This document shows positions 14,274-38,442 of a stretch of 64,000 bases of DNA, piece after piece. The stretch comes from Candidatus Magasanikiibacteriota bacterium (GTDB lineage Bacteria > Patescibacteriota > Patescibacteriia > Magasanikbacterales > UBA922): assembly GCA_016193335.1 (NCBI GenBank), contig JACPSK010000001.1:175926-239925 (forward strand), written 5' to 3'. A program made the position numbers and the translations under genes. The notes beneath the pieces were generated by a model. That model worked only from the letters and a program-made list of their open reading frames with translations. It was not told where the DNA came from and searched no databases. The first letter of the stretch is position 1. Each line of letters begins with the position of its first letter.

Positions 14274-14279
14274 GTGGTT

Positions 14280-15519: not shown

Positions 15520-15522
15520 GCT

Positions 15523-16044: not shown

Positions 16045-16049
16045 ATGAA

Positions 16050-20714: not shown

Positions 20715-21643
20715 ATTCCTTTTGTGATAATTTTTTCGCGGATCACATACGGTGTTTGTTTGCTTGTTTCAAAATACATGCGCAACATCATCTCGGCGAG
20801 CAGACCGAGCATAACAAACAAAATGGCAGACAAGACAAAAAAAATGCTTAGAATGGGAAGAGGCGTCTGACCAAAATTACGCAAGTCCGCAAGTTTTAAG
20901 TACAAAGCCAATACGGCGACTATAAATCCGATCACGAATGAAACAAAACCGATACTGCCGAAAAACACGAGAGGTCTGCCGGTCATCGCGAGCAAAAACT
21001 TCACCGTGGCCAAATCAAAAAGATTTTTAACCGCTTTCATGAAATAATGCTTGGACAAACCAAACTTGCGTTCGTGATGACGCACGGGCACTTCCGCAAC
21101 CCGGGCTCCGCGACCATGAAGGTAAGCGGGCAAAAACACATGCATCTCACCATAAAGACGCACCCCTTGAATAACTTCTTTTCGGTATGCTTTCATGGCG
21201 CAGGCAGAATCATGCAAAGCCAAGCCGCTCACTTTGGCCGTAAGCCAATTAGCGAACCTGGACAAAATTTTTCTGTTCATCGAATCTTGTCTGTCCTTAC
21301 GCCAACCGGAAACCACGTCATAGCCTTCTCTCATTTTCGCGACTAAGACCGGAATATCGGCAGGGTCATTTTGCAAATCTCCGTCCATGGTTATGATAAT
21401 ATCGCCCTTGGCCTCGTGAATTCCGGCGTCTAACGCCGAAGTCTGTCCAAAATCCATGCTCAAGGCGAGAATACATACCTCCGGGAGCATTTTTAGTTGC
21501 TGAACCGTGTCATCGGTAGAACCGTCATCTATAAATATAATCTCAAAAATGTCGGCCACTCGTTTCATGGAATCGAGAATTTTTTCGTGCAGCAACTTGA
21601 CATTATCACGTTCATTGTATACTGGTATCACGATTGAAATCAT
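20711..21643 (-). CDS. GT2 polyprenyl-phosphate glycosyltransferase (DPM1/GtrB/ArnC-like), copy 2
   Basis: IVIPVYNE...IDDGSTDDT...MDGDLQ motifs and two C-terminal TM helices. It is a paralog of 9090..10016. Confidence 0.75.
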   Translation of the reverse strand: MISIVIPVYNERDNVKLLHEKILDSMKRVADIFEIIFIDDGSTDDTVQQLKMLPEVCILALSMDFGQTSALDAGIHEAKGDIIITMDGDLQNDPADIPVLVAKMREGYDVVSGWRKDRQDSMNRKILSRFANWLTAKVSGLALHDSACAMKAYRKEVIQGVRLYGEMHVFLPAYLHGRGARVAEVPVRHHERKFGLSKHYFMKAVKNLFDLATVKFLLAMTGRPLVFFGSIGFVSFVIGFIVAVLALYLKLADLRNFGQTPLPILSIFFVLSAILFVMLGLLAEMMLRMYFETSKQTPYVIREKIITKGI

Positions 21644-22564: not shown

Positions 22565-24088
22565 TTACCAATAAGTATAAAACAATATTTGAAAGGCAAA
22601 ACTTTGAAATATGAGTAAGCACAAAAGCGAGGCGGATTTCGTTTCAGACTCTTGTTTGATCATAGAGGACAGTACCGGCAAAAACAATGGAAACACAAAA
22701 AGCCAGAGCCGCCCAACCTCACCCTGAAATATGCCTATGGCCAAAAGAAAAAGAACAAAAACATACCCTATATAATGATAATGTCGAGCCGTCTTATTTT
22801 TATCACGAAAACGCTGAAAAAAACCGGAAATATGCGCAATGCCCATGGCGATAGCAAAAGCAAGTATATTCATGAGGAAAAAAACCACATAGATTCCCAA
22901 GGAAGAAAAATTACTCTGCACTGTTTCGGAATTAGCGCCTCTCGCCGCGAGAAAATTTTCCAGTATCGAATAACCGGTCGAAACGTACAGAAAAGCAAAA
23001 AAACTCAGAAAAAAAACAAGACCAAGACTCAAATTCAGCGAAAAATCGTAAGCCGATCGTGTCGGATTATTTTTGTAATGCTTTTGCCATATGTGCCACA
23101 ACATATACAAAAAAACAGGAGCGACAAGCAAAAAAAGGAAATTCGAAAATAAAGCAAAAGCCGCGGCCAAACCGCCAAAGGCAGATCCAATCCGGGATGA
23201 TTTCCAGCCTTTGAGGCAGAGCCCCAAACTCAGCCATGTAATGAACAGAAAAAAAGCCTCAAGAGAACTCACGCTCATCAATACCAGGCCCGGAAAAAAA
23301 ATAAACAACTGAAGCGAAGATCTCAGGTCATTTTCATCCATGAATTCCCTCCAAAAAAGATAGATCGGAAAGACAGAAAGACCTGAAACCAAAGCCAAGA
23401 CAATGGCCACGCCCGGATATTCAAATTTGAAGAACTGCCGGAGCCCGTACAAAAACAAAATATAACCCGGCGGATGGGTGCTGCTGTGCCGCGCGTAAGA
23501 AAGATCGGGATCTGAAACGGTCGCGACATAATCATGGAGAAAACTCTTTGTATTTTCAATATGGGGAAGATAGCCAGTGTACTCCCAATAACTACGCGAT
23601 AAGGAATCCGTGACGCTCGCCCAACCCGAACGCATGCCGTTTATCCCCAAGCTAAACAGTGTAAATACAAAGGCCAAAACGGCCAAGTAAGGCCAAATTT
23701 TCCATTTTTTGAAATATTTCCGGAAGGCAAAAAATAAAAAAACGATAAAAACCGTGTACAAAACCCACCAGGGAGCCAAAATCTGCGGAGAAGGAAGGGC
23801 ATACATAATCAGTCTGTCTGCTATATACCCTTTATATGAGAGGCTGAGAACATATTTCCCCAAAACAACCAAGAACATTAAAAACATGCTGTAATAAAAT
23901 ATTTGCCGCGTTTCTTTTTCTTTCCAAAAAAAATGATGGTAAACAAGGCAAAAAAGTATGGTTGCCAATGTCAAAATAAGGCCGGCCCAGAGCACAGACT
24001 CAGCCTTTTCATAGAGCGCCAGACGGTACTCCTCCCCGAACAGCGATGAAATGAGATTCAGAAATATACTCTTAAAATAGTCCGCCAT
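22565..24088 (-). CDS. Polytopic membrane protein, possibly GT-C-type glycosyltransferase
   Basis: About 11 TM helices and an HPPGY loop motif. No soluble catalytic domain is present. Confidence 0.4.
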   Translation of the reverse strand: MADYFKSIFLNLISSLFGEEYRLALYEKAESVLWAGLILTLATILFCLVYHHFFWKEKETRQIFYYSMFLMFLVVLGKYVLSLSYKGYIADRLIMYALPSPQILAPWWVLYTVFIVFLFFAFRKYFKKWKIWPYLAVLAFVFTLFSLGINGMRSGWASVTDSLSRSYWEYTGYLPHIENTKSFLHDYVATVSDPDLSYARHSSTHPPGYILFLYGLRQFFKFEYPGVAIVLALVSGLSVFPIYLFWREFMDENDLRSSLQLFIFFPGLVLMSVSSLEAFFLFITWLSLGLCLKGWKSSRIGSAFGGLAAAFALFSNFLFLLVAPVFLYMLWHIWQKHYKNNPTRSAYDFSLNLSLGLVFFLSFFAFLYVSTGYSILENFLAARGANSETVQSNFSSLGIYVVFFLMNILAFAIAMGIAHISGFFQRFRDKNKTARHYHYIGYVFVLFLLAIGIFQGEVGRLWLFVFPLFLPVLSSMIKQESETKSASLLCLLIFQSFAFQILFYTYW

Positions 24089-24094
24089 AAAATG

Positions 24095-25231
24095 CTAGAG
24101 TCTGATAAAATCTGCGATGTTTCTCGCCCGCGCAGGCCATCCGTACAAGCTCCGGGCTTTCAATTGTAATGTGTTCGCCGCCTTCTCGCGCTCAGCAAAA
24201 TGCTTAAAGACCTGCTCAATCGCTTCTGCCAAAGAGGCCGGGTCATCCGGCTTAAAAAAAACCGCTTCTTCGTCGCTAAGCACTTCTCGAAGCGAAGGTA
24301 TATCTGAACAAATCATTGGTCTTCCGGAAACCATATACTCGAACAATTTGAGAGGAGAAGTATAATGCGTGCTAATGCGCTGTTTGGCGCTGTTTGGGAG
24401 TACCAAAATATCCGCCGCTTTCTGCCAAAAAGGCATCTCCCTTTGAGGCCTCCAACCCACAATATGCAGCCGATCAGACTGGTAAGCTTTCCTAAAACGT
24501 ACAATATCCTCTTGCGTTCCGCCTACAAAATAAATATGAATGTCAGAAGGAAGCAAAGACGCGGATTCTGCCAGAGTATCCGCCCCTTTCCAGCCGTACA
24601 AATGACCTGTATACACCAACATTCTTTCTTGTTTACCTATGCCTAATTTTTCTCTGCATGAATCTCTGGGTTCTGGTATGTCAAACATAGTCATGTCAAC
24701 CGCGTCACGGGCGATCAAAATAGAATTCGGATTAACGCCTTGTGCCACCAAATCGTTTTTAAGGCCCTGACTTATGACTACGAATGAGCTAAGATTCCGC
24801 CAAATTCTGTTATATAATTTCGGAGTCTTTTTTTCGGGCAAAGAATGAATCTCAAAAACTACCGGTTTCTCTCCGGAACGACTCAGCCAATCGGCGAGAA
24901 ATTGATCTCTCGTGTAATATAATTCAAGACCAGACTTTTTTAAATATCGTTTTAAAAAATAAAAAAAAGAGAGACTCTCCAAAAAAAAACCAAAAGGGCC
25001 CAAGGCGCACAGACTAACGAAGTCGAGACAGGGCAAACGCAGAATCGAAAAAGAATCTTTGACGCCATAAAATTCAAAAGGATCCGACTTTATGCTGTTC
25101 AAACGCTTCGGTACTATGAGCGTCACGTCAAGCCCGCACTCAGAAAGGCCTTCGCAGGTCTTCATAATCTGGACTCCATGAGCTTTTTCAGTTGGGAGCC
25201 GTATATTGGCTATATAAGCGACTTTGGTCAT
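24095..25231 (-). CDS. GT4 glycosyltransferase (group 1)
   Basis: A C-terminal block LVLPNSAKQRISTHYTSPLKLFEYMVSGRPMICSDIP resembles the E-x7-E region. The internal start MTKVAYIANIR is chosen. Confidence 0.65.
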   Translation of the reverse strand: MTKVAYIANIRLPTEKAHGVQIMKTCEGLSECGLDVTLIVPKRLNSIKSDPFEFYGVKDSFSILRLPCLDFVSLCALGPFGFFLESLSFFYFLKRYLKKSGLELYYTRDQFLADWLSRSGEKPVVFEIHSLPEKKTPKLYNRIWRNLSSFVVISQGLKNDLVAQGVNPNSILIARDAVDMTMFDIPEPRDSCREKLGIGKQERMLVYTGHLYGWKGADTLAESASLLPSDIHIYFVGGTQEDIVRFRKAYQSDRLHIVGWRPQREMPFWQKAADILVLPNSAKQRISTHYTSPLKLFEYMVSGRPMICSDIPSLREVLSDEEAVFFKPDDPASLAEAIEQVFKHFAEREKAANTLQLKARSLYGWPARARNIADFIRL

Positions 25232-25236
25232 ACATC

Positions 25237-27105
25237 TTATTTTTTGATATAGGTATCGTACCAGAGCTGCCACATAAAGGCGGCGTATAGTATGTTAACA
25301 TGATAGGCTTTTGAATGCACATGTTCCTCAAATAATATATTCAGGGCTTTGGGATCAAAAAAATCAGTGTTAAGATGACCGGGAGAAATGATGTCCCCCA
25401 CAAAATCCCGCAGTTCATGCCGCATCCATTTTGCCATGGGAGTAAACCAGCCTCTTTTTTTCTGGTTCAAAACTCGCTCGGGAATATAAGATTTCAAGGT
25501 CTCCCTCCAAATATCTTTTCCTTTAAACATAGACGGAGCCAAGGGAGACAGATGCATTTTCCAAACGCTCGGAATTTTTGCCGCAAATTCCACCAAGTGT
25601 TTATCAAGTATGGGGACTCGTTCTTCCAAACCCCAGGCCATAGTCATGGCGTCTGTGCGAAACAAAGATTCATCCACCAGCCAACTCTGCCGGTCCACGT
25701 TCATCAGATGTTTTTCCAAGTCTTCCTCTCCTTTCAATTCTTCTCCAAAACGTTCCGCAAGATGCCGGGCCACCCCGTTCGGCCGAAAAACATTCGCAGC
25801 CAAAGTACCCTTCGCCAGGCTTGTTTTTTGGCAAAAAAAAGCGAGCCAGCGTTCCATTCCGGTCCTAGCTCCTAGCTTTTTAAGCACATGCTGTTTTCCG
25901 GTAAGTCGTAAAAAATTCTCGAATGAACGCCTGAAAAAATGAGGGAGCCGATAATAATGGCTCAAAAGAAAACTGTAGTAATATCTCGGGTATCCTCCGA
26001 ACAATTCGTCTCCCCCGTCTCCGCCCAAAACAACCGCCACTTCTTGCTTGGCCGCGCGGGAAAGCAAAAATTGGGCGAAAGCGGTGGGGTTGGCGTTTGG
26101 TTCCCCCAGGTGAGAAACCACGTGCGCGCTATGTTCCAACACATCCCGGGCCGAAATTCTGGTTTCAAAATGTTCGGTGCCATAGTACGCGGCGCTGAGT
26201 TTCGCCAGCAAAAAATCCGCGTTGAATTTTTTTGATTCTGGATGATCAATTTCAAAACCCACTGAAAATGTCTTTATCTTGCCGCGTGCCGATTCTGATA
26301 CTGCCCCGAGCACTGCCGTTGAATCAATGCCTCCGCTCAAAAAAATGCCAAGAGGCCGATCCGAAACCAGCTGGCGTCTTATGCTCTCCTTAAACAAAAA
26401 TAAAATCTGTTCCCGAGCCTCTTTTCTCGTTAATGACGTATCGACAAAATCGTCTACTTGCCAATACCTAAGAATAGATAAACGCTTGTTCGCGTCCAAT
26501 CTGAGATAATGCGCGGCCGGCAATTTTTTTATTCCCTCAAACATGGTGAGCGGTTCGGGGATATAGAGAATCTGAGCATACATATTGAAAGCCACAGGGT
26601 CCACGCTACGAGGTACTCCATGCTCCAATATTCCCTTAATTTCAGAAGAAAAAATGAAGCGCGTATTATCAAAATAATAATACAAAGGTTTAATCCCCAT
26701 CTGGTCGCGCGCGAGCCAGAGATCTCCGGTTCGTTTGTCCCAGATGGCGAAAGCGAACATGCCGTTGAAACGTTTTAAACAATCAATCCCCCACTCCCGA
26801 TACGCGTATAAAACCACTTCAGTATCGCTTTCTGACCGAAAGGAATACCGTGTTTTCAGTTCTTCACGAATTTCTTTGAAGTTGTAAAGTTCTCCATTGT
26901 ACACAATGACGATCTCCTTCTTTTCATCCCACATAGGCTGGCTCGCCCGTTCGGATAAATCTATGATAGCCAGACGATTGAACCCAAAAGAGACAGCCTG
27001 CTCGGCGAAAAAATCATTTTGATCAGGGCCGCGATGCCTGGTTATGTGATTCATGCGCTGAATCAATTCCGGGCCGTAAAAATTAAAACCATTTATGCCA
27101 CACAT
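25237..27105 (-). CDS. Asparagine synthase (glutamine-hydrolysing)-like amidotransferase
   Basis: Starts Met-Cys-Gly-Ile, the N-terminal Cys nucleophile. PP-loop SGGIDS is present (FLSGGIDSTAV). The length is 622 aa. Confidence 0.8.
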   Translation of the reverse strand: MCGINGFNFYGPELIQRMNHITRHRGPDQNDFFAEQAVSFGFNRLAIIDLSERASQPMWDEKKEIVIVYNGELYNFKEIREELKTRYSFRSESDTEVVLYAYREWGIDCLKRFNGMFAFAIWDKRTGDLWLARDQMGIKPLYYYFDNTRFIFSSEIKGILEHGVPRSVDPVAFNMYAQILYIPEPLTMFEGIKKLPAAHYLRLDANKRLSILRYWQVDDFVDTSLTRKEAREQILFLFKESIRRQLVSDRPLGIFLSGGIDSTAVLGAVSESARGKIKTFSVGFEIDHPESKKFNADFLLAKLSAAYYGTEHFETRISARDVLEHSAHVVSHLGEPNANPTAFAQFLLSRAAKQEVAVVLGGDGGDELFGGYPRYYYSFLLSHYYRLPHFFRRSFENFLRLTGKQHVLKKLGARTGMERWLAFFCQKTSLAKGTLAANVFRPNGVARHLAERFGEELKGEEDLEKHLMNVDRQSWLVDESLFRTDAMTMAWGLEERVPILDKHLVEFAAKIPSVWKMHLSPLAPSMFKGKDIWRETLKSYIPERVLNQKKRGWFTPMAKWMRHELRDFVGDIISPGHLNTDFFDPKALNILFEEHVHSKAYHVNILYAAFMWQLWYDTYIKK

Positions 27106-27145
27106 ATGTTTCTGAAGACATCAAAACGAATAATGACCTGCCTTG

Positions 27146-28819
27146 TCAATTTAAACGACGGATAATAATCTCAGGCCCAAGCTGTCGAGTTCTCAACAGA
27201 TTCGGCAAGCCGCCGTTAAACCCGTCGGTAAAAGGCAGGCCTTCCGGCGTCTCATCTCCGTGAATGTATTCCAGTTCGGCCCCTGAGGCGAGAAAGGAGG
27301 AATCAGCTTTTTTGCTCAATAAAAATTCAGGGTTAAAAACAATATATTCATATCCCTGGGTTTCCAGATAGTCGGACAAATGAGCAAAAAAAGAAGAATC
27401 GGAAACCGCTTCCAGATTCAAAGCATGAAATGCTTTTCTATTTTGTTGAGTCATTGTCAATTGCTTTTCGGCCTTATCCGCGTTCCGCAAGGCTTGGGGC
27501 TGGATGGATTCGAGCTCCATAACCGCAGATGGGAGACCGGGCAAGCGAGTAAGCGGAGCAAGGACAGCAATCTTACTGCCGCCAGAAACCTCTCTGTATA
27601 TCCAATCCAAGGCCTGAATTCTGGAGTCATTTCGCAAAAACAGCAGATCGAGATAGAGAAGCGGCGCAATCATCAAAGCTATGAGAGAGAAAACAAGGAA
27701 AAACTGAAATCTTCTTCTAAGTCGCTGAGATATACACCATAACCCAAATCCGGCACATAAAGCAAATAGAGGATAAAAAGGAAGAATGTAGCGATCCATG
27801 TTGAGAAACGAATAATAAAATATGGCGACATACGAAGCCAAAAAAATAATCCCGACAAAAAAAAGACGTTTATACTTTTGAAAACCGGCCAAGGCTCCAA
27901 AAAATGCAAAAACAGAAAGCAAAGGATCCCCCTTTATCACACTCCGTATATACATCCAATAATCGTGGAACAAACCGCTCAATGTTTTGTGATAAAAAAT
28001 AGAGTCAGGCGCGTTTCTCGCCACAAAGAAAGGCTGGGGCCATAATACATATACCAGTAACACCAAACAAACAAAGACTGCTATCGACCCCCAAAACCAT
28101 AACGTCTTGACATCTTTGAACAAAGACCGCCGATCATAGATCAGATACCAAAGCACGATAAAAAGCGCTGTCAGACCCATTTGGGGAGCTATACCCACCC
28201 CCATGCCGCTCAGAATTGCCGACACGAAATAGCGTTTGGCAGAAGGCCATTCTTCATGGAGCAAGACGAGCATAAGCGCGGATAACAAAAAAGCCGCATA
28301 TATCCAATGCCGGGCCCAGTGGGAAAAATTACTGTGCAAAAATGATAGGGCCAAAAAACCGGCCGCGTAGAGAGCCATGGTCTTGTTCTTGAACAGACGA
28401 AGGCCCAGCGCGTAGCTGAGGTACACGGTTCCCGTGCCGACCAGAACCGCCAAAAAACGCGCCATCAAAAAAAATGCCGAAGGGTCACTGCGCATCAAAA
28501 GACTTAGAGTGTTTACATCCACACCTTTTATGAAAAAACTGATGCCGATATATGCCAAAAAGGGAAACAGGTACAAATAAGAGATAAAAGGAGTGTAATA
28601 AAATGTTAAAGCGAACACTTCTCTATGCGCAGCTGGAATTATGGTCTTGAGTTCCAACATTTTAAGAGCACCAAAGATCAATGTTGGTTCATCTCCGACG
28701 AGCCAGAGTGGCAAGCCGAAACCGATGCCCGTGAGTCGAATGATAAAGGCGACAATGAGGATAGCCACAATGAGCGCCTGGGGATACTTGTTTAAGATAC
28801 TTCTCATATGTATTCTCAT
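27146..28819 (-). CDS. GT-C-type glycosyltransferase (ArnT/PMT_2-like)
   Basis: LVGDEPTLIFGALKML matches the ArnT DE..Y/F..IA..ML loop motif after TM1. It has about 12 TM helices plus a C-terminal soluble domain. Confidence 0.65.
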   Translation of the reverse strand: MRIHMRSILNKYPQALIVAILIVAFIIRLTGIGFGLPLWLVGDEPTLIFGALKMLELKTIIPAAHREVFALTFYYTPFISYLYLFPFLAYIGISFFIKGVDVNTLSLLMRSDPSAFFLMARFLAVLVGTGTVYLSYALGLRLFKNKTMALYAAGFLALSFLHSNFSHWARHWIYAAFLLSALMLVLLHEEWPSAKRYFVSAILSGMGVGIAPQMGLTALFIVLWYLIYDRRSLFKDVKTLWFWGSIAVFVCLVLLVYVLWPQPFFVARNAPDSIFYHKTLSGLFHDYWMYIRSVIKGDPLLSVFAFFGALAGFQKYKRLFFVGIIFLASYVAIFYYSFLNMDRYILPFYPLFALCAGFGLWCISQRLRRRFQFFLVFSLIALMIAPLLYLDLLFLRNDSRIQALDWIYREVSGGSKIAVLAPLTRLPGLPSAVMELESIQPQALRNADKAEKQLTMTQQNRKAFHALNLEAVSDSSFFAHLSDYLETQGYEYIVFNPEFLLSKKADSSFLASGAELEYIHGDETPEGLPFTDGFNGGLPNLLRTRQLGPEIIIRRLN

Positions 28820-28946
28820 GCATTTTGATTTAATGAAACCTTTTCCGTAATCACGGTATTGTGGTACCACTCGCTCCGAGCAGGCATCCACTATGGAAAT
28901 ATGCCTAAGCTATTCGAACAAAAGTCACAAATGGCCAAACACGATG

Positions 28947-29504
28947 TCATAGCAAGTCAGCATCAGGCCGTTTTAACCATTCTTCAAAACTCAAAGCAAC
29001 GCTGTCCCTTTCAGACACGATATAATCTGTCGCGCCAGGCCAGTTTATTTTGAGCAAGGGATCATTCCAAACGATACTGGCTTCAGCCGCCGGATTATAC
29101 AAAGATGTATAATGATAAGACATGAAGGCCTCCGAACCGAGCACTTGGAAACCGCAGGCAAAACCCGGCGAGGCATACAACTGTTTCTTGTTTTCTTCAC
29201 TTATCTCGATGCCGAACCATGCGCCAAAACTGGGCGATGATTTTCTAATATCCACAGCCACCACAAAAGCGGCTCCACGGGTGATCCTCATCAATTTGCC
29301 AAGCGGCTCTTTCCACTGAAAATGCAGCCCGCGTATAACTCCCCTTTTAGAATATGAACAATTTTCTTGGACAAAATCCAAATCTAAACCGCATTCTTTG
29401 AATTTATCTTTGTGAAACAATTCCATGAAATATCCCCGCGTATCTCTGAAGCAATTCGGCTCGATGACATAAAGACCTTCAAGTGGTTTTTCCAGTATGC
29501 GCAT
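28947..29504 (-). CDS. rmlC: dTDP-4-dehydrorhamnose 3,5-epimerase family cupin (RmlC-like); it may act on another NDP-sugar such as GDP-heptose
   Basis: GVIRGLHFQ (RGLH motif) and a length of 185 aa. Confidence 0.7.
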   Translation of the reverse strand: MRILEKPLEGLYVIEPNCFRDTRGYFMELFHKDKFKECGLDLDFVQENCSYSKRGVIRGLHFQWKEPLGKLMRITRGAAFVVAVDIRKSSPSFGAWFGIEISEENKKQLYASPGFACGFQVLGSEAFMSYHYTSLYNPAAEASIVWNDPLLKINWPGATDYIVSERDSVALSFEEWLKRPDADLL

Positions 29505-29522
29505 ATATGTTAGGGGATAGTC

Positions 29523-29738
29523 CTAATACCATTGGCCTGAAGATTGTTTTTGATAATGGTCCTGAAATTCTCTGCGTCCCTTTATCTTAAGCCACCAATC
29601 TTTATGTTCAAGATACCATTCCACCACATCCCCCAAACTCTGGTCTATTGGCAAAGCTGGCGCCCATGTAAACTGAGATCTGAGCTTATCGCCATTCACG
29701 GCATAACGCGTGTCCGCTCCCGGACGGTCGCTGATATG
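29523..29738 (-). pseudogene. C-terminal fragment (about 70 aa) of dTDP-glucose 4,6-dehydratase (RmlB)
   Basis: ISDRPGADTRYAVNGDKLRSQF...VVEWYLEHKDWW matches the RmlB C-terminus DRPGHDRRYAID...TV.WY..N..WW. The upstream part of this ORF is antisense to the transposase remnant and unrelated to RmlB. Confidence 0.6.
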
Positions 29739-29744
29739 TGTGGT

Positions 29745-29909
29745 ATGTTCAGCTACCGTGATACTGATCTCGATACGATCACCGCCGCCCAGATCAGACG
29801 CGTTGAAGACAAAATCAATAACCGACCAATGAAGTGTCTCAACTATCAAACTCCGAACGAGGCCTATGCAATTGAAATGAACAAAATTATGCCTAACCGC
29901 AATCTATGA
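29745..29909 (+). mobile_element. IS30-family transposase, C-terminal remnant of about 55 aa
   Basis: DTDLDTITAAQIRRVEDKINNRPMKCLNYQTPNEAY matches the IS30 transposase tail ...EL..IA..LN.RPRK.L.+KTP.E.F. No DDE core is present. Confidence 0.55.
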
Positions 29910-29916
29910 AATTAAT

Positions 29917-30228
29917 TTATTTTTTTATCCACAGGTTGCACTTGTAAATTGAATGTGGGTAGTTTGATCGCCCACGAGCCTCAGCGGTTTTCAAGTATTC
30001 ACGGTCCTCGGTATTGTATAATTTTACCACTTCATCAAGGGTCAATGTTTCCCTGGTTTGAATAAGTCCGCAACGGATACATTTTACCATTGGCAAGCAA
30101 ACGCCATAATCTTTATCAGTGACTTTAAAAGTGGCGCACTCATATAAACTAACATACCGCTTAGCAAAGGATACAGGAGTTAGGTCACCTTGGCAAATTT
30201 CGCAATTGATACTCAGATTATTTGGCAT
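29917..30228 (-). pseudogene. N-terminal zinc-ribbon fragment of an NDP-sugar C-methyltransferase (TylCIII-like)
   Basis: CEICQGDL...KCIRCGLIQ resembles the CxxCG...CxxCGLVQL putative zinc-binding N-domain of sugar C-methyltransferases. The SAM-binding domain is missing, and the ORF stops 8 bp from the IS remnant. Confidence 0.45.
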
Positions 30229-30239
30229 AGCGCTAAAAA

Positions 30240-30815
30240 TTATTGAACAAGCAGAGAAAAATTACTGCCCTTTACTAAAAAAATACGGTCAGCTGCATCC
30301 ATAAGTGGACGATCTTCTTCTGAATCGGTAAAAACATCAAAATGTTCCAGATTCTCGGTTTTTAAACGATCAACTTTCGCCATATGCCAACAAGTAGAAA
30401 ATCTATTAAAATCAGGATCATACTCCGTACCATGAACAATCCAGCCTTTAATATTTTTGCGGGCTAAAATTGCTTCAACCAAATCTTTCCAGGCCGCGGT
30501 TGACACATACACACGGTTATATTGTTCGTTTATATACCGAACCAAATCTTCATTAACAAAGGGAAATAATTTTTCCGCATACTCATCGGTAACACGCGCC
30601 GCGCCGCGGCGGTAGACTTCCTTAAATAAAGCATGACGAAATTTTCTCCTAAAAAAAACTTGACGCTGATACGGCAAAATGAATCGCACGCCAAACAGGA
30701 CGATTCCCCACCATAAAATAATCGGGGAACTATAGGTATAGCCGTCACGAAGCATACGCATGGTGGAGTCAACCGTAAGCAAAGTTTTATCAAAATCAAC
30801 CACTGCCGTAGACAT
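30240..30815 (-). CDS. HAD-superfamily hydrolase (phosphatase)
   Basis: Motif I VVDFDKTLL (DxDxT) and motif IV FTDSEEDRPLM. Confidence 0.65.
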   Translation of the reverse strand: MSTAVVDFDKTLLTVDSTMRMLRDGYTYSSPIILWWGIVLFGVRFILPYQRQVFFRRKFRHALFKEVYRRGAARVTDEYAEKLFPFVNEDLVRYINEQYNRVYVSTAAWKDLVEAILARKNIKGWIVHGTEYDPDFNRFSTCWHMAKVDRLKTENLEHFDVFTDSEEDRPLMDAADRIFLVKGSNFSLLVQ

Positions 30816-30824
30816 ACAAAAAAT

Positions 30825-31766
30825 TTATTGACGGATAGAGTATCCTATAAAATGATTTTCCAGAAAAAAATGCAATCTGGGAAAATCAACCCACAACAAT
30901 AAACTGACACTCATGGTTAATAATAAAATGTACAGCATAAACCACCTCTCTCGATAAAGTTTTTCCGGCCGCTGTGCTGGTGAATCAGAATTCATCCCCA
31001 AAGACAGATACCAACCGAATAAAATTGAAAATAAAGGCAAACTCAAAAGAAGTTCAATCCGGTGTTTAATTATAAATACACCAAAGAAAAAGGCAAAACT
31101 CATGGCGTAAAAAAGAATGGATACAAGCAAATTATTTTCCGTGTAAAAACGAAATGACCGACGATAGAGTACGGCCGTACTCCGATCGCCGATAAACCGC
31201 AATTCGGCATACCGCTTCACGGCCATAAGGAATGCCCCGCCCATCCAATATGCAACCAATAAACTCACAGGTGGTAAATAGGCGCTGGTCACAACAAACC
31301 ATCCTAAGGCAAAACGGATAGGATTATTAATTGATTCGGATAATACATCCATGTACATTTTGTCCTTGGTTCGAAACGGTTTTACATTATATAAAAAACC
31401 CATGACCAAAAGAAACAACGCAGCAGCCAAAAAATAATAAGAAATAAAATAGGCAATACTTAAACCTGTTACCGCCAATACTGCATATTCAACAAAAACC
31501 AACTTTGCCTTGATTCTACCTGTTACCGACGGACGATTTTTTTTAAGGGGGTGATATTTATCAAATTCAGCGTCCAGCCACTCATTTATGACATAGTTAG
31601 CGGAAGCAATGATACATACACTTATCAAAGCCAAAAGACCTACCGCAAGCAGACGGTAAGAGAACGTATCGGTCAGCCACATAGCCACGACTACACCGGG
31701 CAACATGAATATATTTTTAAACCAATGTGAGGGTCTGGCAATAGAGATATAATCTTTTAAACTCAT
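30825..31766 (-). CDS. UbiA-family polyprenyltransferase-like membrane protein (candidate polyprenyl-phosphate phosphoribosyltransferase)
   Basis: About 8 TM helices. An N-x-x-x-D-x-x-x-D motif (NEWLDAEFD) follows an RP...W...F..PG segment, and a second acidic motif KDKMYMD is present. The gene abuts the HAD hydrolase gene. Confidence 0.55.
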   Translation of the reverse strand: MSLKDYISIARPSHWFKNIFMLPGVVVAMWLTDTFSYRLLAVGLLALISVCIIASANYVINEWLDAEFDKYHPLKKNRPSVTGRIKAKLVFVEYAVLAVTGLSIAYFISYYFLAAALFLLVMGFLYNVKPFRTKDKMYMDVLSESINNPIRFALGWFVVTSAYLPPVSLLVAYWMGGAFLMAVKRYAELRFIGDRSTAVLYRRSFRFYTENNLLVSILFYAMSFAFFFGVFIIKHRIELLLSLPLFSILFGWYLSLGMNSDSPAQRPEKLYRERWFMLYILLLTMSVSLLLWVDFPRLHFFLENHFIGYSIRQ

Positions 31767-31859
31767 AAAATCAAGCTCTAAAAAGACCCTGAAACTACAA
31801 ACATAATAACATAAACCCATCTTTATGACAATGGCTGCGGAATCAAAAAACAGCGGCTT

Positions 31860-32618
31860 TCATCTTTCATATTCTCCCCTCCCGAGTCTGAGCCGAATAT
31901 GAATTATATCCCAGATCATCATCAAGGTGTCTGCGACAAGGCGCACACTGCTTTCTTTATGATGAATCAATTCCACCGGAAAATCTAAAAATAAAAGGCT
32001 GTTTTTCCGAGCGATAACAAACATTTCTATATCAAAAGCAAAACGGTCCACGCGTGAACATTCAAGAAGCAAAACAGCAAATTCTTTCCTCATCATTTTT
32101 ATGCCGCATTGAGTATCCGGAATTCCTGAAAGCAGGACGGATTGCACGACATATTTAAAAAATGTTCTGCCCGCGTTTCTGATAAATCCATACTTTTTTC
32201 GTGATTGCGAAGCCGGATGACTCCGAGACCCATAGAGCAAGGACAAATCCGTTTGCGCCCGCATCTGACCAAGCATATGGCCAAACATCGCTATGCCATA
32301 AGGCAGATCCGCGTCAGTAAAAACAAGAAAAGCCCCGCGCGCCTTCCGGAATCCTTCTTTGAGCGCCCCGCCTTTCCCCTTGTTTTCGGGGAGATGCAAA
32401 ATCGTATAATCTCTTATGGATCCGGCATACGATCGGGCGATCTCGAGAGTCCTGTCTGAGCTTCCGTCATCAACCACTATAATTTCCACACCATATCCGC
32501 AGGAGACCGCATAATCCCGAAGCGTGCGCAAAGAAGATTCCAAAAAGGCCTCCGCGTTCAAGACCGGAATAATAATCGACACATCAATAGTCCTATTTAT
32601 TATCTGGGGTTCTTTCAT
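31860..32618 (-). CDS. GT2 glycosyltransferase
   Basis: VSIIIPVLNAE...VVDDGSSDRT...TDADL motifs. The internal start MKEPQ at 32618 removes the overlap with the upstream gene. Confidence 0.7.
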   Translation of the reverse strand: MKEPQIINRTIDVSIIIPVLNAEAFLESSLRTLRDYAVSCGYGVEIIVVDDGSSDRTLEIARSYAGSIRDYTILHLPENKGKGGALKEGFRKARGAFLVFTDADLPYGIAMFGHMLGQMRAQTDLSLLYGSRSHPASQSRKKYGFIRNAGRTFFKYVVQSVLLSGIPDTQCGIKMMRKEFAVLLLECSRVDRFAFDIEMFVIARKNSLLFLDFPVELIHHKESSVRLVADTLMMIWDIIHIRLRLGRGEYER

Positions 32619-34056
32619 ACAAAGTATAATGCCCTCGCTGAGCCGTGGGCCTATAGGATTCCAAAATAGTTGTTTCCAAGTTAGCCAATCTAAGTTCTGA
32701 AAGCGAAGCGCCGGAGACGATATAAGAAAATAAATTCCCGTTTTTATTTTCCAATCCGTCAACCCCGAAATGCAAAACCGGATTGATTTGGAGATATTGA
32801 TATATCTCGAACTCATCCGACAAAAAAGCAAGAGAGGGACTATTTATCATCAAAATATCAGAACCAAAATCCACATGATCTTTTACGGTCATCTCCATAT
32901 CTTGAACTTCTTGTGAAAAATATAAAGGTTCATCCACTTTTTTGATAAACAAAAAAGTTTGGAGCGAAACGAGACAAGCCAAGATAGCAAGTGCGTATGT
33001 TCTGCCGATGAGTTTAAAAAGCGCGAAAGGAAAAAACAAAAATAAAAGCAGGTGAGCAGGGAAAAAGTACCGGTACCATCCCGGCGTCTTCAGATACCAA
33101 AGAACATTCAATAGTATGAATACAAAAAGAATCAGCTCTGATCCCGAGAGAAAATCACCTTTCCGAAAACGCTTTATAAATGAAAGGCCGCTTATTAAAA
33201 ACAAAAACAGGAAATGAAGCGGCGTGCTTTCCCGCAAAAAACGAAGGGCATTCCCCGCGACAAGCCCCCCTATATTCGCTTCCGCGTAAGAATTGGCGTA
33301 AAAATCAAGCGTTTCCTTGAGTCCCGCCATACTGAATTCCGGCATGATAATGAAAAAATATATGAGAAGCGGGGGAAGCAATCCGGCGCCAAAAACCAAG
33401 GACTGCGCCAAAACTCCTTTTTTATGTTTCAAAAAACGATATGCCTCATATACGAATACGGCGGGAAGAATCAATACAAAAAAAGGCTTGGTGGCCACAC
33501 TCAAACCTATCAGTATGCCTGAAACAAAAAACCTTCGGAGACCCTGAGCGCCATAAAAAGCACAAACGCCTAAAAGCAAAAAACTTAAGCCCGGAACCTC
33601 GCCAAGCGCTGCTTTGCCGTTTCCATAAAAAGGAATAAAACTTATAATCAAAACAAGAGTCCATAAGGCGGCTTCTTTGTTATGGTAAACCATTCGAACA
33701 AAAAAATACGCGGTTCCGGAGAATAGCAACATATACAGGATCATGGGTATTCGAGCGGCCCCAATGCCCGAACCGAAAAATTTCAAAGACAGAGCCACCG
33801 GAATTATCAAAGGGTAATTGCTCGTTATCAAAAAAGACCGCTCTTCCACAAATTGTCCGGGGCCGATTTTTAAGCTAAATATCCAGTCTTCGGCCAGACT
33901 TTGGGCTATGCCCATGTTTATCCCTTCGTCAAACCAGGTGGCAGGCGAATACGAGATTCGCCAGAAGCCAAAAAATAGCAAGACAGCAAAAAGTAAACCC
34001 AGAAGTACCGTATGCCTGGGTACATAAGAAAAAACCTTTTGAAACAGAGTCTGCAT
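32593..34056 (-). CDS. GT-C-type glycosyltransferase (ArnT/PMT_2-like)
   Basis: WFDEGINMGIAQSL motif after TM1, a KP-type motif SVATKPFFVL and about 12 TM helices. Confidence 0.6.
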   Translation of the reverse strand: MQTLFQKVFSYVPRHTVLLGLLFAVLLFFGFWRISYSPATWFDEGINMGIAQSLAEDWIFSLKIGPGQFVEERSFLITSNYPLIIPVALSLKFFGSGIGAARIPMILYMLLFSGTAYFFVRMVYHNKEAALWTLVLIISFIPFYGNGKAALGEVPGLSFLLLGVCAFYGAQGLRRFFVSGILIGLSVATKPFFVLILPAVFVYEAYRFLKHKKGVLAQSLVFGAGLLPPLLIYFFIIMPEFSMAGLKETLDFYANSYAEANIGGLVAGNALRFLRESTPLHFLFLFLISGLSFIKRFRKGDFLSGSELILFVFILLNVLWYLKTPGWYRYFFPAHLLLFLFFPFALFKLIGRTYALAILACLVSLQTFLFIKKVDEPLYFSQEVQDMEMTVKDHVDFGSDILMINSPSLAFLSDEFEIYQYLQINPVLHFGVDGLENKNGNLFSYIVSGASLSELRLANLETTILESYRPTAQRGHYTLYERTPDNK

Positions 34057-34074
34057 ATTAGTGAATCTATCTTT

Positions 34075-35415
34075 TCAGCTGAATAACCGATACAGATGTT
34101 CGTGTACCGCGGGCCAGAAAAAAATAAAATCCAACACACTTATAATAAGCAGCAAAGAAAAAACTCTATACAAAGCCTTTAAAGCCTCTTTCTTTCTTTC
34201 ATAGAGCAGAACCAGAAAATAGGATCCAAAAAGCGCCAAGAAAGGATAAATTTGAAGACGATACCTGGATTCTACCACGCTTGGTAAAAGAAGGATCGGA
34301 GCGCTCAAACCGAGCGCGATACAATAATACAGTATGGTGCTTTTCTCTTTTTTAGAAAGCAACATTCCCGAAAAACCGCTCACAAACAAAATTCCTATGC
34401 CGATAAGCGAGCTCAAAACAAAGGCTATTTGCCCGATCCCGTTTTGATAAAACCAAAAACCCATCGGGCGTATTAAACTGAAATAACGGAGAAATCTGAG
34501 AAAAGACAGCTTGATAAAATGTGAGGGATCTTCTTTCAGAACCCGCAAAAATTCCTGGCGTGCTTTTTCTTTTAAATCAAAGGAACCTTCCTCGTTGAGA
34601 TATTCTGTCAAAGGATTGTACCCACCCGCGATCTGCCCGCCATTGGCGCTTTCAATATTACCGATCCACAAATTATATTCTCCGATTAGAGTGGTGGGAA
34701 TAAAATCCCCATAAATCGCATGATTTCGGAGAGCCCAGGGAATCAAAACGATAACAAAAAAACAAAAAAACAAAAACAACTGCGCATAATATTTACGTAT
34801 TGCATAAAAAAACAAAAAAACAGGCACAAAAAGCAATATGGGCGGCCGTGTGAGTATCGCGAGGCCTGTCAGGAATCCGAGTAAGGCCGCGGCGATTTTT
34901 CTCTCAGGTCGGCTAAAAATCTTCACAAAGACGTAGAGTGTCGCTATCGTAAAAAAAAGATACAAGGTCTCAGTCATAAGCATCGCGGATATTTCTATCA
35001 AATCAGGATGCAAACCAAAGAGACCCAAGGCCACAAAAGCGATGGCATTTTTGCTCGTTTGTTTCTCGAACACCATTCTCGCGATCAGAAAAATAAGGTA
35101 CGCGGAAACTGCGTGCAGGAAAGCTTGAATAAGCCATACGGCCTCGTAATAATGGCCGAATACAAAATATATCCCGGCGAGAAAAAATTCATAAGCAGGC
35201 CCTGCGCGAAGTATGGCGCCATCAAATTCATAGGATTTCGCCGCATCTTCCCTGAAACCCTGGCCATCAAGAATATTCAAAGCTATTCGATCGTATGCTT
35301 TCGCGTCGACCACGGGGTTTATCTTATAATAAAAAGAGTATCCTGCGGATAGCAAAAAAATGACAAGTAAAAACGCGGCGAGCCATTTACGCTCTTTGTT
35401 CCATTTCATAAGCAA
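34075..35415 (-). CDS. GT-C-type glycosyltransferase (ArnT/PMT_2-like)
   Basis: VVDAKAYDRIALNIL aligns with ArnT DEARYAEISREML. An LTRPPILLF segment resembles the KPPL motif. Many TM helices. Confidence 0.6.
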   Translation of the reverse strand: MLMKWNKERKWLAAFLLVIFLLSAGYSFYYKINPVVDAKAYDRIALNILDGQGFREDAAKSYEFDGAILRAGPAYEFFLAGIYFVFGHYYEAVWLIQAFLHAVSAYLIFLIARMVFEKQTSKNAIAFVALGLFGLHPDLIEISAMLMTETLYLFFTIATLYVFVKIFSRPERKIAAALLGFLTGLAILTRPPILLFVPVFLFFYAIRKYYAQLFLFFCFFVIVLIPWALRNHAIYGDFIPTTLIGEYNLWIGNIESANGGQIAGGYNPLTEYLNEEGSFDLKEKARQEFLRVLKEDPSHFIKLSFLRFLRYFSLIRPMGFWFYQNGIGQIAFVLSSLIGIGILFVSGFSGMLLSKKEKSTILYYCIALGLSAPILLLPSVVESRYRLQIYPFLALFGSYFLVLLYERKKEALKALYRVFSLLLIISVLDFIFFWPAVHEHLYRLFS

Positions 35416-36370: not shown

Positions 36371-37597
36371 TCAAGTGCTAGGGAAGAGACTCTCAAGAGA
36401 ATTTTTAATAATTCCCGTCAAACGCTCAGAAGAAAACAAAGCCGAAGCCTGGTCTTTGGCTTTAATTGAGAGTCTCTGCCTCAAATCCAGGTCTCTCAAT
36501 ACGCCAAGAGCTTCTGCAAATTCCCGGGGAGAATCCGCAGTAAGCAGATGTTCTCCATTGTAAAATGGATAGCCCGCTATACCGCGAGACGAAACAAGAG
36601 CGGGGAATCCCCTGGCCAACGGCTCGAATATTTTCTGTTGCATTCCCGCTCCGTACAAAGAAGGAATAAGCGCTATATCCATTCCTTCGAATACCTTATT
36701 CAATTCTCCAAGTGGTACATAGCCATGTTGCGTCACGCCATTCACGCAGAGAGTTTCCAAATGAGAGGGCAATTTTGCCCCGAAAATATGGAATTCAAAT
36801 TCGCCGGGGAACATATGTTGAACCAAAGGGACAATCCGAGAAAGAAGCATTTCCGCGGCCGCCCGATTATGCGCCACATTGTATGTGGATCCGAAAAAGA
36901 ATACTTGAAGAGGGCTGGAATCTTTTATATTCGCCTTATAAGAAAGATAAGAAGAAATCCCCCGAAGCGGAAGCACTATCACATTTTTAGATCCTATCTT
37001 TTTATACCATTTCTCTTCGTCCGGCGTGATCGCGAAAAGGACATCGCTTAATTTTCCCGTAATGTATTCACTCAAAAATTTCGGCAAAAATTTTAGATAG
37101 TTCCAAGCGCTGCGGCCGTCCTCTTCCAAAAAATGCAAGGCCTCAAAATTGATAGAACGGCTGACAATGGGTATTTTCCTTTTTTTCACAAAACGGAAAA
37201 GCGGCCATAGATAGGTATAATCAAACCAGACCAGATCGGGCTGAAATTCGTCCAAGATACGCAAAAGTTCCTTTTGTATTTCTGGATCCCTGTATTCGTA
37301 GGCGGCTCCGTCCAAGTACCAAGGTCTCGCGAGACGTCCACAGATATTTTTTATCTTCTGAATCTTGGACATGTTTGCTCGAAGATTTTTGTATGGAACC
37401 GCGGATATGGGAATCTCAAGAGCCTCGCTCATTGTTTCCGCTTCTTTTCTGTATTTCTCTGAAGAAACCTTGGTAAGTACAGATACTTCATAACCCCAGC
37501 TTATAAATTGCTCTATTCCGGTCGCCCTATCTTGTTCGCAAGCCCCGTAAGCCGGAAACGGAAATTTCGGAGTTATGATCAAAATTTTCCTCTTCAT
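36371..37597 (-). CDS. GT4-like glycosyltransferase
   Basis: A C-terminal block [30 protein letters not shown] resembles the GT4 E-x7-E region. The N-terminus is divergent. Confidence 0.55.
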
Positions 37598-38301
37598 GAA
37601 AATAGATTAAATTTAATTATGGCCCACAAAGCGCTGAAACCATCTTTCCAACCTATTTTTTTGCCCTCGGCATAGGTACGGCCGCTGTATGAAATCCCCA
37701 CTTCATAAATTCTCAAACGCTCCCGCGCCACTCTGGCTGTTATCTCGGGTTCAATGGTAAAGCGATCTGAGCTCAGCTTAGGAAGAATTCTTTTCAAGGC
37801 TTCTCCGGTAAAAGCCTTGTAGCAGGTCTCCATGTCCGTAAGATTGATATTGGTAAACATGTTGGAAAGAAGGGTCAAAAACCGGTTTCCCACATAATGC
37901 CAGAAAAAAAGAACCCGGTGAGGCCTATTGCCCAAAAAACGAGAACCATAAACTACATCAGCGCGGCCATCAAGTAAAGGCTCAAGGAGAACCGGGTATT
38001 CTTCTGGATTATATTCCAAATCAGCATCTTGGATAATAACAAAGTCCCCTTTGGCCGCGGCAAAACCGCTCCGGAGGGCCGCTCCCTTACCTTTGTTTTC
38101 AGGATGAAACAGTACGCGCAAAGAGTCTTGATTTTTATCAAGACCTTGCAACAATTCCCTCGTACCGTCAGTGGAAAAATCATCAACCAAAATAATTTCC
38201 TTCTCCATGCCTTCGAGAGCAACCTTTTTCACGGCGTCAATGAGGCCGAGTATTGTATGTTTTTCATTATATACCGGTATGACTACTGACAATATCTTCA
38301 T
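37594..38301 (-). CDS. GT2 glycosyltransferase (soluble DPM1-like)
   Basis: [10 protein letters not shown]...[10 protein letters not shown]...QDADLE motifs. No C-terminal TM helices. Confidence 0.7.
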
Positions 38302-38442
38302 ACATCAAATATCTATGGGCTTATTCATGAGAATATGAATATAAGATCTTAATTACAAACCGTGGAAAAAATAAATCTCCGCGACATTTCCGTGGCAGAC
38401 TCAGGGAAAAATACATTCCCAGGCCTGCTTGTCTTGATTTTA

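Follow-up and report, generated by a model that had tools for sequence, protein, structure and literature searches.

A probable cell-surface glycosylation island with multiple GT-C-fold glycosyltransferases and predicted lipid-linked sugar donor synthases in a Candidatus Magasanikbacteria genome

The stretch of DNA analyzed here (the window; 64,000 nucleotides) belongs to a cell-surface glycosylation island that spans at least 70 kb of a metagenome-assembled genome (MAG) of Candidatus Magasanikbacteria, a groundwater member of the Candidate Phyla Radiation (CPR; Patescibacteria). Six polytopic proteins encoded in the window, designated A to F, are glycosyltransferases of the GT-C fold, the evidence differing from protein to protein, and a seventh (G) is encoded shortly to the left of it. 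We consider it likely, with a probability of roughly 80%, that the window holds tandem multi-component transmembrane glycosylation systems of the GT-A plus GT-C type. In such systems, a membrane-linked GT-A enzyme makes a C55-P-sugar, a flippase moves it, and a GT-C enzyme transfers the sugar outside, as exemplified by GtrB/CsbB/GacI-type GT-A enzymes, GtrA/Wzx flippases, and GT-C enzymes such as YfhO, GtlB (PMT_2), and GacL (PMC8035078). This type of system is already known and no new mechanism is revealed; what is new is its scale for a minimal CPR genome, the recognition of the family of A and B as GT-C, and a gene cassette of an ArnC-like enzyme, AsnB, a methyltransferase, and a GT-C protein.

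A first-pass annotation of the window had claimed six open reading frames (ORFs) for GT-C-type membrane glycosyltransferases, with the possibility of more. All six were present on the minus strand at the coordinates claimed, each encoding a polytopic protein with 7–12 strong hydrophobic segments, and the seventh bore out the words “six or more”:

3859..5709, minus strand: A, GT-C-fold glycosyltransferase of the A/B family; 616 aa, polytopic, with a C-terminal domain of ~210 aa
10770..12560, minus strand: B, GT-C-fold glycosyltransferase of the A/B family; 596 aa, 11 transmembrane (TM) helices and a C-terminal extracytoplasmic alpha/beta domain
22565..24088, minus strand: C, GT-C-fold protein of a divergent PMT_2-related family; 507 aa, all-membrane, with E169 and H205-P-P-G208
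27146..28819, minus strand: D, PMT_2-type GT-C protein; 557 aa, with a C-terminal domain of ~160 aa
32593..34056, minus strand: E, GT-C protein of the PMT_2 family; 487 aa; Pfam PMT_2 at 1e-6, 29.5 bits
34075..35415, minus strand: F, GT-C protein of the PMT_2 family; 446 aa, no large C-terminal domain; PMT_2 at 2.3e-8, 34.9 bits
~3–4 kb left of the window, on contig L006: G, a seventh PMT_2 protein; 464 aa

In NCBI, protein B corresponds with 100% identity to HYY51_00930, encoded on a contig of 686,675 bp. The ORF of A can be extended to a TTG at 5892 and that of D to a GTG at 28891; the ATG starts agree better with both the adjacent genes and the alignments of the families, and were preferred. 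The Logan contig L006, which carries the gene for G, is 100% identical to positions 1..3731 of the window and reaches 8.7 kb further left.

The relationship to PMT_2 was direct for two of the proteins and was seen through relatives for two others. E and F scored above the gathering threshold (26.1 bits) of the Pfam PMT_2 model (PF13231; GT39/GT83-like). D alone gave 16.0 bits (E = 0.014), below this threshold, but 43 of its 52 sampled relatives matched PMT_2 (best, 1.8e-12), its family profile matched yeast Pmt1 (E = 0.0015), and an exhaustive search with HMMER put the family at 1,725 representatives (E ≤ 1e-3). The sole candidate to reach Pfam PMT (PF02366) was F, which passed marginally (6e-5; 23.1 bits against a gathering threshold of 22.7 bits). 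E scored 17.6 bits (1e-3) and F 26.8 bits (2e-6) against the ArnT equivalog of NCBIfam (NF009784), whose cutoff of 567 bits was reached by none, and no other candidate matched this model. Because these scores lie so far under the cutoff, E and F are not ArnT orthologues. The match of F to the LA_3751/3752 family of NCBIfam (1e-7) was likewise far below cutoff; F had no matches among PDB sequences, and no MIR domain was matched by Pfam in any candidate.

As a single sequence, C gave no meaningful match in Pfam, NCBIfam, or the PDB. Its relatives, in contrast, matched PMT_2 in 11 of 23 cases, C itself aligned with the PMT_2 core of F at 7e-5, and hhalign related its family to that of D (E = 9.5e-6). 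The first-pass description of C as a weaker polytopic candidate has to be revised: C is a clear GT-C protein.

Proteins A and B matched each other by BLASTP at 1e-17, and a hidden Markov model (HMM) of the B family built without A matched A over its full length at 2e-54; they are paralogues within one family. This A/B family had no match to Pfam, NCBIfam, or PDB sequences, even with a 50-sequence profile. A Pfam domain was found in 0 of 84 B homologues, all of which are named “hypothetical protein” but one, a JGI entry called “cell division protein FtsL”. The structure model of B (predicted local distance difference test score, 94.8; predicted template modelling score, 0.93) and an hhalign comparison with the D family (94.7% probability, E = 6e-8, 365 columns) assign the A/B family to GT-C by predicted fold and remote homology, not as members of PMT_2 or ArnT in the database sense. 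Three-dimensional similarity to solved GT-C enzymes, a mark of the GT-C superfamily, was found. Thus, for A and B, the earlier claim of PMT_2/ArnT-type enzymes stands as far as GT-C is concerned, but without a PMT_2 or ArnT profile match. In sequence, some GT-C enzymes are so divergent that they can hardly be recognised, and structure prediction is the best way to find them (PMC8035078); the recognition of A/B, which came from structure prediction, is in line with this. A Patescibacteria-wide family of “hypothetical” proteins of ~590 aa is hereby recognised as GT-C. The C-terminal domain of B contains two conserved cysteines, C443 and C465. An STT3-type oligosaccharyltransferase was considered for B and rejected, as the WWDYG-type peptide-binding motif of the STT3/AglB/PglB C-terminal domain was found in none of the candidates.

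The first-loop acidic motif (the “modified DxD” of GT-C enzymes) that had been claimed for A, B, D, E, and F was found in all five, and in the seventh protein as well:

A: E54-D55-D56..Y59..EIL
B: N54-E55-E56..Y58..EIL
D: D43-E44..ALKML
E: D43-E44..IAQSL (single sequence)
F: D37..Y41..IALNIL (single sequence)
G: GDSSEY..LALNI

An acidic residue after the first TM helix is weak evidence in a lone sequence, so the support for the motif comes from its conservation within each family. D43 and E44 are invariant in the D family (52 of 52 sequences). In the A/B family, the position of E55 is occupied by E in 48 of 50 members and by D in the other 2, Y58 is invariant (50/50), and the preceding position (N54 in B) is N in 39 and D in 8 of the 50. 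The alignment of the two families by hhalign placed N54-E55 of B exactly on D43-E44 of D. The statement that C has no D-E motif was correct; C carries W-E169-Y in the equivalent large outer loop, where the acidic residue is kept as E in 22 of 23 family members and as D in the remaining one, and H-P-P-G is invariant (23/23).

The helices of the structure model of B were taken as TM segments, which gave 11 TM helices with the N-terminus inside and the C-terminus outside; the model of C had ~12, and ~8–13 are usual in the GT-C superfamily. In B, lysine and arginine made up 21% of the predicted cytoplasmic loops versus 7% of the short outer loops, and all 27 conserved loop residues fell in outer loops and none in cytoplasmic ones; the C-terminal domain holds another 14 conserved residues. 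In A, B, D, E, and F, the N-terminus bears a net positive charge (2–4 K/R versus 0–1 D/E). Because of these charged N-termini and the outer position of the conserved loop residues of B, the motif is predicted to be extracytoplasmic, as the first-pass annotation had supposed. Of the outcomes that the first-pass annotation had named as refuting its claim, namely an inner-face motif, a transporter fold, and a lack of PMT_2/ArnT similarity, none was found for the candidates as a set. In C, four helices (residues 1–153) precede the large conserved outer loop, and its short loops rich in K/R (WKEKETRQ, residues 55–62; KKWK, residues 127–130) would place its N-terminus outside the cell. Compared with the other candidates, in which the motif comes after the first TM helix, C would then be extended at its N-terminus.

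Genes predicted to serve the synthesis of lipid-linked donors lie among the GT-C genes:

9090..10016, minus strand: ArnC/GtrB-type polyprenyl-phosphate glycosyltransferase no. 1; 308 aa, C-terminal TM helices; adjoins an NTP-transferase gene and B
10024..10761, minus strand: sugar-1-phosphate nucleotidylyltransferase, which would feed module 1; Pfam NTP_transferase, NCBIfam Arch_glmU/AglF-like 1e-43
13265..20714, minus strand: NDP-heptose-like pathway, which would feed module 2; Pfam and NCBIfam matches
20711..21643, minus strand: ArnC/GtrB-type polyprenyl-phosphate glycosyltransferase no. 2; 310 aa, C-terminal TM helices; ArnC 9hwj 7.3e-53, GtrB 1.8e-25
25237..27105, minus strand: AsnB-type glutamine amidotransferase, probable sugar amidation; Pfam Asn_synthase 1.6e-76
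30240..30815, minus strand: HAD-family phosphatase, candidate lipid-P-ribose-5-P phosphatase, adjoining the UbiA gene; Pfam HAD 4e-9
30825..31820, minus strand: UbiA-family polyprenyl-phosphate phosphoribosyltransferase-like enzyme, a third donor type; Pfam UbiA 4.8e-24
31860..32618, minus strand: soluble GT2, possible further polyprenyl-P-sugar synthase; ~252 aa, directly downstream of E; Glycos_transf_2 2e-27

The product of 9090..10016 matched ArnC (9hwj, 1.7e-51), GtrB (5ekp, 5.5e-26), and DPMS (5mlz, 1.5e-22) over its full length. Each of the two ArnC/GtrB-type GT2 genes adjoins a nucleotidylyltransferase gene, and the second lies at the end of the heptose-like pathway. Homology makes both enzymes membrane-linked GT-A candidates for C55-P-sugar synthesis. 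The two polyprenyl-P-sugar synthase modules noted earlier are thus genuine full-length homologues of ArnC/GtrB/DPMS, but the count was too low: there are three, and possibly five, predicted donor synthases, identified as such by their sequence relationships. The UbiA-family protein has as its best PDB relative the decaprenyl-phosphate phosphoribosyltransferase of M. tuberculosis (8j8j, 4.8e-14); it matched the DPPR-synthase models of NCBIfam at ~1e-20, with 69–74 bits against cutoffs of 207–474. Its top NCBIfam model, PRK08238, has 482 positions, and the match spans only positions 190–387; the unmatched N-terminal part is presumably a HAD domain. The soluble GT2, whose start was re-assigned to the ATG at 32618, had weak NCBIfam matches to PpgS, PgfS, and ArnC, and it may be a further donor synthase, as may the soluble GT2 of 218 aa encoded on L006.

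The block at 13265..20714 comprises genes for a transaldolase, a HAD phosphatase, a GmhA-like isomerase, a phosphoribosyltransferase, an epimerase, a GFO oxidoreductase, an SDR protein, an HddA-like kinase, and an NTP-transferase. Its NCBIfam matches (GmhA, 4.7e-25; HddA, 1.4e-39; HddC-like, 2.7e-18) were all under the equivalog cutoffs. A related locus, L001, is syntenic with the window around B, including the heptose-like block.

The linkage between A/B-family genes and donor synthases is conserved in other genomes. A scan of species-representative genomes yielded 80 A/B-family loci, 49 of them with full flanks, and every locus with an informative name belongs to Patescibacteria, in many classes. 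A full-length ArnC-like GT2 lay within 10 kb in 45 of the 80 loci and in 33 of the 49 with full flanks. Adjacency to ArnC/GtrB homologues and this recurrent linkage suggest indirectly that the GT-C donor may be a lipid-phosphate-linked sugar. A same-strand cassette was frequent, consisting of an ArnC-like GT2, AsnB, a gene of ~2 kb, and an A/B-family GT-C gene, often followed by a PMT_2-type GT-C gene (L005, L014, L024, L034–L036, L038, L041, L048, L049, L058, L059, L063, L071, L079, L081, L082, L085, and L086); L005 has the order GtrA, GT2, AsnB, methyltransferase, B homologue, PMT_2. In the window, AsnB adjoins D and not A or B. Three A/B-family genes stand side by side in L003. With the limited detectors used, no locus outside the window had more than three GT-C genes per ~21 kb; the six to seven GT-C genes of the window are therefore at the high end but cannot be called unique. 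Many loci (L008, L011, L020, L032, and others) carry TPA_asm MAG titles of “uncultured Gammaproteobacteria bacterium” or “uncultured Candidatus Saccharibacteria bacterium”; on clear Patescibacteria-type A/B-family loci, such titles probably reflect placeholders or wrong taxonomic assignment in bulk submissions.

Annotation of the whole window with Pfam and NCBIfam gave the picture of a surface-glycan island. From 2678 to 43784, 38 minus-strand genes follow one another, mostly overlapping or spaced by ≤40 nt, in an operon-like manner. The window encodes sugar-nucleotide enzymes (epimerases/dehydratases, an NDP-sugar dehydrogenase, GFO and SDR oxidoreductases, RmlC, and two sugar-1-P nucleotidylyltransferases), seven GT4 and four GT2 glycosyltransferases by annotation, two methyltransferases, one AsnB amidotransferase, a UbiA-family enzyme, and a Wzy_C/TPR membrane protein, and then secreted proteins and an ECF sigma factor with a DUF5667 partner. 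Its only polytopic proteins are A to F, the UbiA-family protein, and the Wzy_C/TPR protein. The remaining glycan-assembly genes are as follows:

24095..25273, minus strand: GT4 glycosyltransferase (Pfam)
36371..42764, minus strand: cytoplasmic glycan-assembly glycosyltransferases, five GT4 and one GT2 (Pfam)
51140..53161, minus strand: membrane protein of the Wzy_C (O-antigen ligase/polymerase/O-OTase) superfamily with a C-terminal TPR region; ~11 TM helices

The Wzy_C/TPR protein, named as such in the first-pass annotation, indeed matched Pfam Wzy_C (7e-21) and TPR. Only its TPR part matched solved structures, and NCBIfam gave only a sub-threshold IctB match; Wzy_C-like genes were found near A/B-family genes in five other loci.

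The island runs past the window and is larger than first described. Left of the window, L006 carries genes for a small GT2, an NTP-transferase, a methyltransferase, an amine oxidase, a DegT aminotransferase, and a carbamoyltransferase adjoining the seventh PMT_2 gene; to the right, the matching contig gives only ~0.8 kb more. In the region L006 7432..9857, at the left island edge, the carbamoyltransferase gene (Carbam_trans_N/C, 612 aa), whose 5' part is window 1..1132, adjoins genes for small SxtJ- and DUF5989-family proteins, which suggests a possible O-carbamoylation of a sugar.

The secreted proteins of the window include two candidate acceptors:

54164..57973, minus strand: conserved secreted surface protein with a Thr-rich linker, candidate glyco-acceptor; 1269 aa, signal-anchor
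47446..49158, minus strand: repeat-rich, fibre-like secreted protein, candidate acceptor by sequence reading; no Pfam match

The Thr-rich linker reported earlier is present in the 1269-aa protein at residues ~254–273 (TDTTTTDTTTTDTTTT, with TDTTTT repeats), the linker-peptide stretch being SSSTDTTTTDTTTT. This protein has 161 homologues, the closer ones 50–62% identical, with named sources mostly in Magasanikbacteria. The position of the linker is conserved among them and usually rich in G/S/T/P, but a strong poly-Thr tract occurs there in just 3 of the 117 full-length homologues. Directly upstream of the gene, a region at 58240..60157 (minus strand) encodes an ECF sigma factor together with its putative anti-sigma partner, a membrane protein with DUF5667, suggesting a dedicated regulation of the surface layer.

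A second fibre-like gene, at 43931..45200 (minus strand), is homologous to 47446..49158 and has repeated “...NIYASSTAFLDYVSST...” units. It is split over at least two frames (44631..45080, then 43931..44620), and reflects either a pseudogene with a frameshift or a repeat that was misassembled. Directly upstream of each fibre gene lies a gene for a single-TM protein (45315..45764 and 49262..49768, minus strand; 149 and 168 aa). These two proteins are paralogous, with a conserved C-terminal ~80 aa containing “...NP(I/L)YFQ(Y/F)VKNGDK...”, and 49262..49768 has no Pfam match; the arrangement suggests a duplicated two-gene cassette of a putative assembly factor and a fibre. A further secreted protein of 476 aa (46007..47437, minus strand), also with no Pfam match, has a low-complexity linker (SSGGGGGGGGSGPGASPAPAPAPEAEAEAPAPAAEAPAP) between two domains.

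Taken together, these data are consistent with the following scheme, of which the analysis shows the identity of the GT-C proteins and of the donor synthases, the predicted outer-face position of the motif, and the conserved linkage of the genes. In the cytoplasm, sugar-nucleotide pathways (the NDP-heptose-like route, UDP-sugar dehydrogenase/decarboxylase steps, and the AsnB amidotransferase) would feed the donor synthases, namely the two ArnC/GtrB-type GT2s, the UbiA-type enzyme with its HAD phosphatase, and possibly the two soluble GT2s, which would place single sugars on polyprenyl phosphate. The lipid-linked sugars would be flipped across the membrane, a step that we infer by analogy with known systems, and the seven GT-C proteins would transfer the sugars on the outer face by means of the conserved acidic residue that starts the first outer loop. 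A glycan would be built by the six GT4/GT2 enzymes, handled by the Wzy_C/TPR protein, and extended or branched by most of the GT-C proteins.

Several points weigh against this scheme. The window yielded no flippase of the GtrA, Wzx, or ABC type, either among ORFs of 70–200 aa with at least three TM helices or among the other polytopic proteins, and Pfam annotation of the window gave no priming phosphoglycosyltransferase of the Bac_transf or MraY/WecA type. Both must therefore lie elsewhere, or the scheme is incomplete; another part of the 687-kb contig may carry the flippase gene. In the gap at 29.5–30.2 kb lie a fragment of RmlB and the remnant of a transposase, and no flippase. Structure models cover two of the six proteins, B and C. 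In protein B, N replaces D as the first motif residue, and two outer-loop residues depart from the family, R at 299 where 45 of 50 members have H, and L at 305 where 45 of 50 have K, so that its activity or specificity may differ. The acceptors, and likewise the sugar carried by each module, we infer from gene neighbourhood alone.

By-eye reading of that gap gave, at 29523..29849 (minus strand), the C-terminal end of RmlB (dTDP-glucose 4,6-dehydratase), with the N-terminal part missing, and on the opposite strand, at 29544..29909 (plus), an ORF ending in “...NRPMKCLNYQTPNEAY”, typical of the C-termini of IS30-type transposases. The region looks like an insertion-sequence remnant that broke a rhamnose pathway beside an intact RmlC (28947..29504).

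Who accepts the sugars is the point on which the alternatives differ. The first-pass annotation favoured direct protein O-glycosylation, in which one or more of the PMT_2-type proteins D, E, F, and G would move sugars from polyprenyl-P-sugars onto Ser/Thr of surface-protein linkers in the layer protein of ~1,250 aa and the fibre proteins, and the other GT-C proteins would extend the O-glycans outside, in parallel to streptococcal GtrB/PgtC2, Pgf, and actinobacterial Pmt. This we regard as a tentative reading, rather less probable than not: the surface proteins are encoded within the island, a conserved position that is G/S/T/P-rich among homologues carries a (TDTTT)n linker in the 1269-aa protein, E and F are members of the PMT_2/PMT families, and GT-A plus GT-C systems acting on Ser/Thr-rich disordered regions have been proven in streptococci (PMC12041528), but the streptococcal enzymes for which this was proven are of the YfhO family and not of PMT_2. 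The rarity of strong poly-Thr tracts among the homologues, the lack of both the MIR domains typical of eukaryotic PMT enzymes and a WWDYG-type peptide-binding motif in the candidates, and a complement of seven GT-C and at least six cytoplasmic glycosyltransferases, which exceeds the needs of known direct systems, also speak against it, and computation cannot separate protein from glycan acceptors. O-glycosylation of an S-layer protein is plausible. We hold, with similar reserve, the possibility of a mycobacterial-style wall or lipid-anchored polysaccharide, polymerised or branched by the GT-C proteins from polyprenyl-P-pentofuranose, -heptose, and -hexose in the manner of Aft/Emb/Mpt, the surface proteins being unrelated cargo. 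The DPPR-synthase-like UbiA enzyme and phosphatase adjoining E and F, the many cytoplasmic GT4/GT2 enzymes, and the Wzy_C protein agree with it, and among the documented roles of bacterial GT-A/GT-C pairs, the decoration of cell-wall polymers is the most frequent (PMC8035078). On the other hand, no LCP ligase, phosphoglycosyltransferase, or flippase was found in the window, and no DprE1/DprE2-type epimerase pair was evident in the Pfam annotation, in which the FAD protein at 7044 matched only DAO/NAD_binding_8, although no search was aimed at DprE1/DprE2.

It is quite improbable that some of the six are inactive, being degenerate paralogues or GT-C-fold proteins that serve as scaffolds or as partners binding the acceptor, so that the number of enzymes would be overstated. 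The N and the two departures in B, the non-catalytic GT-C-fold PIG-U/GAB1 among the structural neighbours, and the decay elsewhere in the island (RmlB fragment, insertion-sequence remnant, frameshifted fibre gene) would fit such a loss; yet all six ORFs are intact and full length, A, B, C, and D each score over their full length against their own family HMMs, each GT-C gene adjoins donor-pathway genes, and in the A/B family N54 is the norm and E55 is always acidic.

The many GT-C proteins together with cytoplasmic glycosyltransferases, the Wzy_C protein, and AftA/ALG12-like structural neighbours favour glycan decoration or elongation, and in our judgement most of the seven GT-C proteins act on glycan acceptors, extending or branching a glycan. 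The final anchor of this glycan would be either the adjacent surface proteins or the cell wall.

Compared with known multi-component systems, the island is alike in that an ArnC/GtrB-homologous membrane GT2 adjoins a polytopic GT-C protein with an outer acidic first-loop motif in a surface-glycan cluster, and in that GtrA and GT2 genes accompany an A/B-family member in a related genome (L005). It differs in having seven GT-C proteins of at least four sequence families and at least three donor synthases in one island, where known systems have one to three pairs, in lacking a flippase gene in the window, in drawing two GT-C proteins from a family without a database model, and in its host, a CPR bacterium with a genome of ~0.7–1 Mb. 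The ArnC/ArnT pathway for lipid A aminoarabinose (GT2 plus GT83) is similar in that the two GT2s are closest to ArnC structures (~1e-52), ArnT is the best named NCBIfam match of E and F, and a UDP-sugar dehydrogenase and decarboxylase-like epimerases are encoded nearby. It differs by its ArnT orthologues and by an ArnA/ArnB/ArnD set, which was absent from the Pfam annotation; CPR bacteria are not known to have lipid A or an outer membrane.

With the PMT enzymes (GT39) and streptococcal GtrB/PgtC2/Pgf, the island shares the GT-C fold, the loop-1 D-E motif (D43-E44 in D and E), a predicted GT2-made polyprenyl-P-monosaccharide donor, and Ser/Thr-rich linkers in neighbouring secreted proteins. The streptococcal systems glycosylate Ser/Thr-rich disordered regions of surface proteins, and pgf genes cluster with adhesin substrates (PMC12041528). 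The differences are the missing MIR domain and the single marginal PF02366 match on the PMT side, and the YfhO-family membership of PgtC2 and PgfM, a family not found here. The mycobacterial arabinan machinery (the UbiA-family DPPR synthase Rv3806c with the GT-C arabinofuranosyltransferases AftA–D and EmbA–C) differs in that the DPPR-synthase scores are under the cutoffs, the phosphatase is HAD and not PAP2, no DprE1/DprE2 was identified, and sequence identity to AftA is 11%. The eukaryotic lumenal ALG mannosyl/glucosyltransferases (ALG3/9/12/6; GT-C), which use Dol-P-sugars and a lipid-linked oligosaccharide, differ in their 12% identity and in the bacterial context here.

Even so, a bacterial counterpart of eukaryotic lumenal glycan assembly is conceivable, improbable as we consider it. 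Up to seven GT-C proteins would extend a lipid- or protein-linked glycan stepwise on the outside of the cell from at least three chemically distinct polyprenyl-P-monosaccharide donors (heptose-, pentofuranose-, and amidated uronate-type), the Wzy_C/TPR protein would transfer it en bloc onto the conserved surface-layer protein of ~1,250 aa, and the A/B family would make an epitope for attachment of the episymbiont to its host. If this were true, the Patescibacteria-restricted A/B family with the cassette of ArnC-like GT2, AsnB, and methyltransferase would be a lineage-specific surface-epitope enzyme.

CPR bacteria carry minimal genomes, probably live in attachment to other cells, and have a surface chemistry that is nearly unexplored; within the literature library searched, no relevant publication on GT-C enzymes, S-layers, or glycosylation in CPR/Patescibacteria was found. 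In the present genome, whose longest contig is 687 kb, at least 70 kb belong to one glycosylation island with seven extracytoplasmic GT-C proteins and at least three lipid-linked donor pathways, which implies that the cell has an elaborate glycocalyx or coat of glycoproteins, one that probably varies between strains. The A/B-family motif (N/D-E..Y) and the associated cassette provide an annotation handle for many CPR genomes and defined targets for experimentalists.

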